A stretch of 24,919 bases of DNA. Source: a virus. The position numbers and the translations under genes were made by a program. Where the stretch lies: IMG/VR virus record IMGVR_UViG_3300021579_000001, positions 66,404 to 91,322 of that record; one strand, 5' to 3'. Shown here piece by piece: positions 20,817 to 20,899 of this stretch (the first letter of the stretch is position 1; each line of letters begins with the position of its first letter). The notes below the pieces were generated by a model. That model searched no databases. It was not told the DNA's origin and saw nothing but the letters and a program-made list of their open reading frames with translations.

Positions 20817-20899
20817 TGGTGGAGCTGAAGGGAATCGAACCCTTGTGCATCATCCTCCGACAAGCGGCTTTAAGACAATGACGAAACCATAGCAGCCCC
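20817..20899 (-). ncRNA. Mini tmRNA-like RNA (tRNA-like domain only, 83 nt)
   Basis: Minus strand GGGGCTG-CTATGGTTTCGT-CATTGTCTT...AGGATGATG-CAC-AAGGG-TTCGATT-CCCTT-CAGCTCC-ACCA. It has G3-U70, a stemless D-loop and encoded CCA, but no tag ORF. Confidence 0.8.

Follow-up and report, generated by a model that had tools for sequence, protein, structure and literature searches.

The 83-nt segment at positions 20817-20899 of the minus strand is a phage gene for a tag-less mini-tmRNA, a complete tRNA-like domain (TLD) of tmRNA with alanine identity elements and no message. The window analysed here, 24,919 nt long, forms the right-hand end of a viral record of 91,322 bp, which has a G+C content of 47% and direct terminal repeats of 127 bp. 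The Rfam model of tmRNA (RF00023) matches at exactly the coordinates of the gene with 64.6 bits (E 2.5e-23; the gathering score is 47 bits), and the alignment runs end to end over model positions 1-374, with 302 internal positions absent and 11 unaligned nucleotides in their place. The tRNA model (RF00005) does not outscore it: the element has neither the D stem nor the anticodon arm of a cloverleaf, and the tmRNA model wins within the clan; overlapping matches within one Rfam clan were suppressed, and RF02544 has no separate score at this site. ARAGORN called four tRNA genes in the window and called 20817-20899 neither a tRNA nor a tmRNA, while our own covariance model, R1, scores it at 75.2 bits. 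No resume codon, tag reading frame or stop codon of an mRNA-like domain is present in the 15 nt between the two strands of helix 2a, and the 83-nt element holds no sequence able to form PK1-PK4 or helix 5. A second tmRNA piece was also looked for, and a permuted model gave just a sub-threshold match of 24.5 bits on the 3' half and the terminator. The original prediction had written the minus-strand letters correctly, and the TLD layout without an mRNA domain that it proposed is borne out by the RF00023 match, by an anchor-based parse and by covariation in the family. The mini-tmRNA is a real, conserved gene, and it belongs to the kind of phage TLD-only tmRNA typified by that of mycobacteriophage DS6A.

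The anatomy was taken from the anchor-based parse, which was made without a covariance model. RNA positions 1-7 (GGGGCUG, 20893-20899) and 73-79 (CAGCUCC) form a 7-bp acceptor stem in which G3 pairs with U70; the 3' strand is followed by the discriminator A73 and an encoded CCA end (RNA positions 80-83), and this entire 3' part occupies 20817-20827. The stemless D-loop (CUAUGGUUUC, RNA positions 8-17, 20883-20892) holds the motif GGUUUCG. Helix 2a consists of a 5' strand at RNA positions 18-28 (20872-20882) and a 3' strand at 44-54 (20846-20856); two non-standard pairs, G18·A54 and U19·C53, stand at its base and are followed by nine standard pairs (CAUUGUCUU/AGGAUGAUG), three of them G·U. In terms of the tandem G·A/A·G seat of tmRNA (GAC...GGAC), G18·A54 is kept and the second pair is U19·C53 instead of A·G. 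The apical loop (RNA positions 29-43, 20857-20871), 15 nt reading AAAGCCGCUUGUCGG, comprises an A-rich lead and a 3-bp CCG/CGG mini-hairpin, and it occupies the place of the ~300-nt mRNA-like domain and pseudoknots of bacterial tmRNA. The single base C55 (20845) connects helix 2a to the T arm (RNA positions 56-72, 20828-20844), which has five pairs (AAGGG/CCCUU) and the loop UUCGAUU, in line with the GGUUCGAnUCC loop of tmRNA. The earlier description of a 7-bp acceptor stem with G3-U70, A73 and encoded CCA, a stemless D-loop with GGUUUCG, a 9-bp helix with three G-U pairs at the place of helix 2a and a canonical T arm agrees with this parse, as does the remark that no other RNA here has CCA, which is absent from the four neighbouring tRNA genes. 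The 3-nt connector CAC was misread, since the real connector is C55 and the other two bases are partners in the non-standard pairs. A single-sequence fold gives the same three-way shape with an energy that is not significant by itself (z = -1.0); the significance of the structure comes from the covariance-model scores and from covariation in 60 homologues, not from fold energy.

Matches to PHROG families mark the virus, which comes from a freshwater sample, as a tailed phage with large terminase, portal protein, major head protein, tail fibre, thymidylate synthase and Hsp20, and its freshwater origin together with its kinship to Streptomyces phages suggests an actinobacterial host. The mini-tmRNA is the last gene of a minus-strand tRNA/ncRNA cluster. 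The sole promoter-like site of its type found upstream of this cluster is a sigma-70-like sequence at 22311-22340 (minus strand; TTGACA, 18-nt spacer, TAAACT, TG extension), which is a consensus match only. Downstream, all on the minus strand, lie genes for tRNA-Asn (22136-22207), tRNA-Gly (21935-22005) and tRNA-Met (21673-21747), called by ARAGORN/Rfam, and then, as the next gene upstream of the mini-tmRNA, a tRNA-like gene (21025-21113) whose anticodon arm is replaced by a 27-nt insert. The remaining arms (acceptor, D and T) fit the tRNA model at 37.3 bits, and ARAGORN gives this gene as tRNA-??? with a four-base 'anticodon' cagg. A structured 125-nt spacer (20900-21024, minus strand) with two long hairpins (fold -47.4 kcal/mol) follows, the second hairpin ending 3 nt before G1 of the mini-tmRNA. 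On the other side, 6 nt after the CCA, stands an intrinsic terminator hairpin of 12 pairs, 8 of them G-C (20783-20810, minus strand), which is two-sided and also closes the converging plus-strand genes. A thioredoxin with a WCxPC motif is encoded beside the RNA operon at 20006-20314 (plus strand), and thymidylate synthase (19299-19997, plus strand; PHROG match) and Hsp20 (22327-22872, minus strand) flank it.

Parts of the operon were found in three metatranscriptome runs. No contig spans 20817-20899; since small structured RNAs assemble poorly in general, and contigs cannot show RNA ends, the missing contig speaks neither for nor against transcription. The structured non-coding spacer at 21150-21659 is represented by identical contigs of 510 and 437 nt (depth 29 and 10) in two freshwater metatranscriptome runs from different studies. 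A relative with 30 different bases in place of 21261-21578 is present in one DNA run and in another RNA run.

When the region, the entire window and the 83-nt element were compared with GenBank phages at the nucleotide level, only tRNA and T-arm matches and no near relative came up. By major capsid protein, the nearest cultured phages are the Streptomyces phages LuckySocke, Alone3, BRock, pSt2308 and GiJojo, with 56-57% identity. RF00023 was run on four of these Streptomyces phage genomes and on Bacillus phage BCD7, and BRock, LuckySocke, GiJojo and pSt2308 each gave an 81-nt full-span match of 57-64.5 bits inside a tRNA cluster, at NC_048650.1 97140-97220 (minus strand), OR725497.1 17977-18057 (plus strand), PP725410.1 17025-17105 (plus strand) and PV588686.1 33356-33436 (plus strand), respectively. 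The GenBank annotation of BRock and LuckySocke has no feature at these sites. Like the window's RNA, the copies of the BRock group have G3·U70, A73 and an apical GAAAGCCG...CGG hairpin, and the acceptor stem of pSt2308 is identical to it. Each phage of the group, like the window, has a thioredoxin gene at a distance of no more than about 4 kb from the mini-tmRNA, and thioredoxin is the ORF cluster that the window and the group have in common. Peculiar to the window's copy are U19·C53, the encoded CCA and its position closing a dedicated RNA operon: the BRock group keeps the usual A·G as the second pair, encodes no CCA, and its mini-tmRNA is not the last gene before a terminator. Unlike the window's phage, in which such genes were not found, the BRock group also has Ro-like and RNA ligase genes; in BRock and LuckySocke a Ro-like RNA-binding protein and RNA ligases are encoded beside the tRNA cluster. 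One worry attached to the original prediction was that relatives might carry a full-length tmRNA here and that this copy might be a one-off deletion or misassembly; the relatives carry the mini form instead. Because BRock, pSt2308, GiJojo and LuckySocke share the same 81-nt form, the mini form is ancestral to the window's phage group.

The wider family was collected by pattern and by model. A strict pattern, a TLD with a 25-55-nt insert and encoded CCA, matched 44 viral contigs when scanned over such contigs, and a second scan with the acceptor stem left free gave at least 120 matches; both counts are lower bounds, biased to a consensus T-loop and encoded CCA. Among the matches listed for the second scan, the mini-tmRNA-like copies all have G3·U70. 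Model R1, built from 35 sequences, separates mini-tmRNAs (>54 bits, n=60; 68-98 nt here) from everything else in the searched loci, tRNA genes included (<=40.1 bits). In the alignment of these 60 distinct sequences from viral contigs, 87.1% of cells are paired against 60.5% in shuffles, and covariation scores 0.657, compared with 0.133 for shuffles and no more than 0.093 for slid partners; being fitted to R1, the alignment leans towards structure, and the model-free anchor parse gives the same helices. Changes on both sides occur in 15 of the 21 pairs and are spread over all three helices: they affect eight of the nine modelled pairs of helix 2a, and in the T arm, where 100% of cells are paired, four of the five pairs show compensatory changes. 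The collection of homologues and the covariation analysis advised with the original prediction thus reveal strong covariation in all three helices, which are under selection. G1-C72, G2-C71 and G3·U70 are invariant in 60/60 while acceptor pairs 4-6 covary, and A73 never varies over the 60 copies. G3·U70 and A73 also hold in copies where they were not imposed, namely the BRock group, DS6A (via Rfam) and, among the matches listed, the free-acceptor scan. An apical RAAA-n-CC motif, followed by a short loop and GG, is shared by DS6A, the BRock group and most of the family, three of whose members have a bare tetraloop as their cap instead. This motif resembles GCGAAACCCAAGGUGCA, which follows helix 2a in E. 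coli ssrA, a likeness that fits an origin by internal deletion with a stub kept.

The family is large, restricted to phages and largely unannotated. In 185,579 bacterial and archaeal species genomes (one genome each), the strict pattern, which covers the CCA-encoding form alone, gave two matches, both on short, phage-like contigs of metagenome bins, of which one has a large terminase and the second a PHROG match. No SmpB is encoded in the complete genome of the window's phage or in 47 carrier records, so the carriers depend on host SmpB; likewise, 24 carrier records, of which 8 are complete, have no full-length tmRNA. Those contigs whose mini-tmRNAs come closest to the window's, among them G037, G024 and G038, have no capsid protein in common with it, and the gene is therefore present in unrelated phage lineages. 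No consistent protein neighbour emerged, as the ORFs within 4 kb of the 60 copies form lineage-specific clusters only.

The list of Hudson, Lau and Williams (2014) includes 'Mycobacterium phage DS6A (TLD only)' (PMC4131195), and passages in PMC4131195 and PMC11915505 report that this RNA inhibits E. coli tmRNA. We located the DS6A element at NC_023744 28478-28560; it has no match at the Rfam gathering score, reaches 43.2 bits with RF00023 in a looser search (below that score) and 55.4 bits with R1. The primary paper on it is reportedly that of Mao and co-workers from 2009. Like the window's RNA, it is phage-borne, 83 nt long and without a tag frame, and has G3·U70, A73, a stemless D-loop, a short helix 2a, a T arm and the apical GAAA-n-CCG...CGG hairpin motif. 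It differs in that CCA is not encoded, the D-loop has the sequence GGUGGUCGAC, and no tRNA operon surrounds the gene, which lies by itself between protein genes. The two phages are unrelated; their mini-tmRNAs align under one model. The published inhibition in E. coli concerned a DS6A-like molecule and not the window's RNA. In the literature searched, DS6A was the sole example found and the wider phage family is not described; since the kind had already been described, the novelty implied by the original prediction was overstated.

Other systems share parts of this design. The whole tRNA-like domain of bacterial tmRNA (ssrA, RF00023) aligns end to end with the window's RNA, which lacks the ~300 nt that include the resume codon, the tag frame with its stop, helix 5 and PK1-PK4; with the message region missing, it cannot template a tag. 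Transfer RNA-Ala has the same G3·U70, A73, T arm and CCA end, and tRNA-Ala genes are the best non-family matches of R1 (about 32 bits), but the window's RNA has neither D stem nor anticodon arm and so cannot decode. CDS-less tmRNAs are known from mitochondria and two plastids (PMC11915505). Those of jakobid mitochondria (RF02544) and the ~65-nt plastid forms of Mallomonadaceae likewise consist of little beyond a TLD; they are without a tag frame and presumably work together with SmpB. The jakobid forms persist with SmpB and are thought to help with incomplete mRNAs (PMC11915505). Unlike the phage RNA, which enters a cell with a full tmRNA, they are reduced resident tmRNAs and the sole tmRNA of their compartment.

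The conserved parts of the mini-tmRNA are those that would be read by alanyl-tRNA synthetase and SmpB. G3·U70, with A73 and G2-C71, constitutes the identity set of alanyl-tRNA synthetase, and its strict conservation, with other acceptor pairs free to covary, speaks for a role of the charged form, as fixed G1-C72, G2-C71 and G3·U70 exceed what an RNA that merely soaks up SmpB would need. In E. coli tmRNA, SmpB contacts A15, U17, C18, G19 and A334; G19 is needed for SmpB binding, and the change G19C abolishes function (PMC8363625). Four of these five bases are kept in the window's RNA: U16, C17 and G18, which match U17, C18 and G19 in position, never change in the family alignment, nor does A54, the equivalent of A334. 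The equivalent of A15 is U here, as it is in most family members. The original prediction had cautioned that CGUC and CAC, standing for the usual CGAC and GAC motifs, may alter SmpB binding. This caveat is softened, in that the altered bases affect just the second non-standard pair of helix 2a, which is itself variable, being A·G in 50 of the 60 members and A·C, A·U, G-C or U·G in at least nine. What stands is that U19·C53 instead of A·G could weaken the elbow of the window's RNA.

We propose as the best explanation, and with slightly better than even confidence, that the mini-tmRNA serves as a charged competitor of host tmRNA and prevents tagging. It would be transcribed as the last gene of the tRNA/ncRNA operon and trimmed like a tRNA. 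Host alanyl-tRNA synthetase would charge it with alanine via G3·U70 and A73, and it would bind host SmpB, the phage having none of its own, and then EF-Tu. In this state it would be a rival of host tmRNA both for SmpB and for the vacant A site of a stalled ribosome. A stalled chain would gain a single alanine at most and no degradation tag, since the mini-tmRNA has no message to offer, and infection would dampen host trans-translation, both in its tagging and in the mRNA decay linked to tmRNA. Charging, binding to SmpB, entry into the ribosome and an advantage for the phage are what we infer, and the function of the window's mini-tmRNA is probable. A benefit from damping rescue has to be set against the fact that some phages need trans-translation. 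Both functions envisaged in the original prediction, a decoy and a tag-free rescue RNA, are reasonable, and for the decoy idea phage DS6A provides a published precedent (PMC4131195, PMC11915505).

The second of these functions is the strongest rival to the charged competitor, if an improbable one. Here the alanyl-mini-tmRNA and host SmpB would accept the stalled chain productively, freeing the ribosome and leaving a product unmarked for proteolysis; the peptidyl-RNA would leave or be hydrolysed by Pth, ArfB or a release factor, and rescue capacity would be added rather than removed. The strictly conserved alanine identity and the encoded or added CCA, which imply that the charged form matters, suit this reading, as does the location of the gene among tRNA genes, a translation-supporting cargo. 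A TLD-only RNA undergoes peptidyl transfer in vitro according to a citing passage in PMC3895274 (Shimizu and Ueda 2006), and the persistence of CDS-less tmRNAs with SmpB in jakobid mitochondria (PMC11915505) points the same way. However, the RNA has neither a stop codon nor a message, and the apical loop is not plausibly decoded, since helix H2 points out between the ribosomal subunits (PMC8363625). In GiJojo, LuckySocke and DS6A, helix 2a is followed by a triplet other than a stop codon, no conserved hydrolase or other protein partner is encoded beside the gene, and the similar TLD-only RNA is said, in the passages on DS6A, to have inhibited E. coli tmRNA and not to have complemented it. A separate candidate was a one-codon message, as UAA, UGA or UAG stands at the junction after the 5' strand of helix 2a in many copies; it was ruled out because several contigs, like the three phages just named, have no stop there and H2 points away from the decoding centre.

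A related idea, which we regard as rather improbable, is that mini-tmRNAs are more than a sponge, namely a minimal device for trans-translation that is exclusive to phages: charged with alanine and carried by host SmpB, they would bring stalled translation of the phage to an end with one alanine and without a degradation tag, and the conserved apical RAAA-n-CC hairpin would make a specific contact to the ribosome or a factor, replacing the pseudoknot ring.

Charging would be irrelevant if the RNA were purely a sponge that sequesters host SmpB off the ribosome. Simple SmpB titration could suffice (Hudson et al., PMC4131195), a point that counts against the charged competitor, and the invariance of the U17, C18, G19 and A334 equivalents agrees with it. 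Such a sponge is nevertheless unlikely, because it leaves unexplained why G3·U70, G2-C71, G1-C72 and A73 are fixed in 60 diverged copies while their neighbours covary, and why many copies encode CCA.

A role outside trans-translation, as a decoy for a host nuclease or defence system that senses or cleaves tRNA-like RNAs or as a partner in RNA repair or of a Ro-type protein, is very unlikely. It is prompted by the Ro-like RNA-binding protein and RNA ligases beside the tRNA clusters of the BRock group, by the RtcB encoded by DS6A and by the other tRNA-like RNAs in the window's operon; but the window's phage has neither a TROVE/Ro protein nor RtcB, no protein family is consistently adjacent across the family, and the conserved features are exactly those used by AlaRS and SmpB. 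Finally, although ssrA is a frequent integration site of phages and genomic islands, which carry pieces of it (PMC4131195, PMC9004378), a non-functional relic (an attP-type ssrA fragment, a decayed tmRNA gene or an assembly artefact) is effectively refuted by covariation and by conservation in relatives: both TLD halves are present and covary across 60 copies, four cultured relatives have the same mini form, no tyrosine or serine recombinase is encoded in the complete genome of the window's phage, no tyrosine integrase above cut-off was found in 13 complete carrier genomes, and all sampled words of the region were found in one DNA run, possibly the source sample. An attachment site was ruled out on the same grounds.

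Bacteria rescue their ribosomes mainly by trans-translation, a pathway that is also a candidate target for antibiotics. The existence of a widespread RNA, exclusive to phages, in which just the elements needed for alanylation and SmpB binding are retained suggests that this pathway is tuned by many virulent phages. Neither ARAGORN nor the GenBank annotation of BRock or LuckySocke reports the gene. As the Streptomyces phages grow in laboratory culture, the function is directly testable. The gain from the window itself is modest: it adds a freshwater member whose unusual U·C at the SmpB-proximal base of helix 2a is a natural variant for binding studies. If mini-tmRNAs were indeed a minimal trans-translation device, they would give a natural answer to the question of how small a working rescue RNA can be, and would also counteract host defences that turn phage mRNAs into non-stop ones.

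Three further loci deserve mention. The complete 86-kb viral genome G025 (contig of L052) has two tmRNA-model matches of mini size, at 76863-76943 (plus strand, 51.1 bits) and 68294-68375 (minus strand, 34.9 bits), the second of which is sub-threshold and could be a diverged second copy or a tRNA. In G011 (contig of L020), a 332-nt full-span tmRNA match at 3115-3446 (minus strand; 25.5 bits, sub-threshold) lies directly upstream of a mini-tmRNA at 2933-3013 and probably bridges tRNA genes by chance. In L139, ARAGORN called a 324-nt 'tmRNA' with an unidentified tag at 5905-6228 (minus strand), which was rejected as a false extension that reuses the 3' half of an 83-nt mini-tmRNA and whose 5' domain has neither G3·U70 nor the D-loop motif; extensions of this kind are likely to give rise to spurious calls of full-length tmRNA when phages are annotated.
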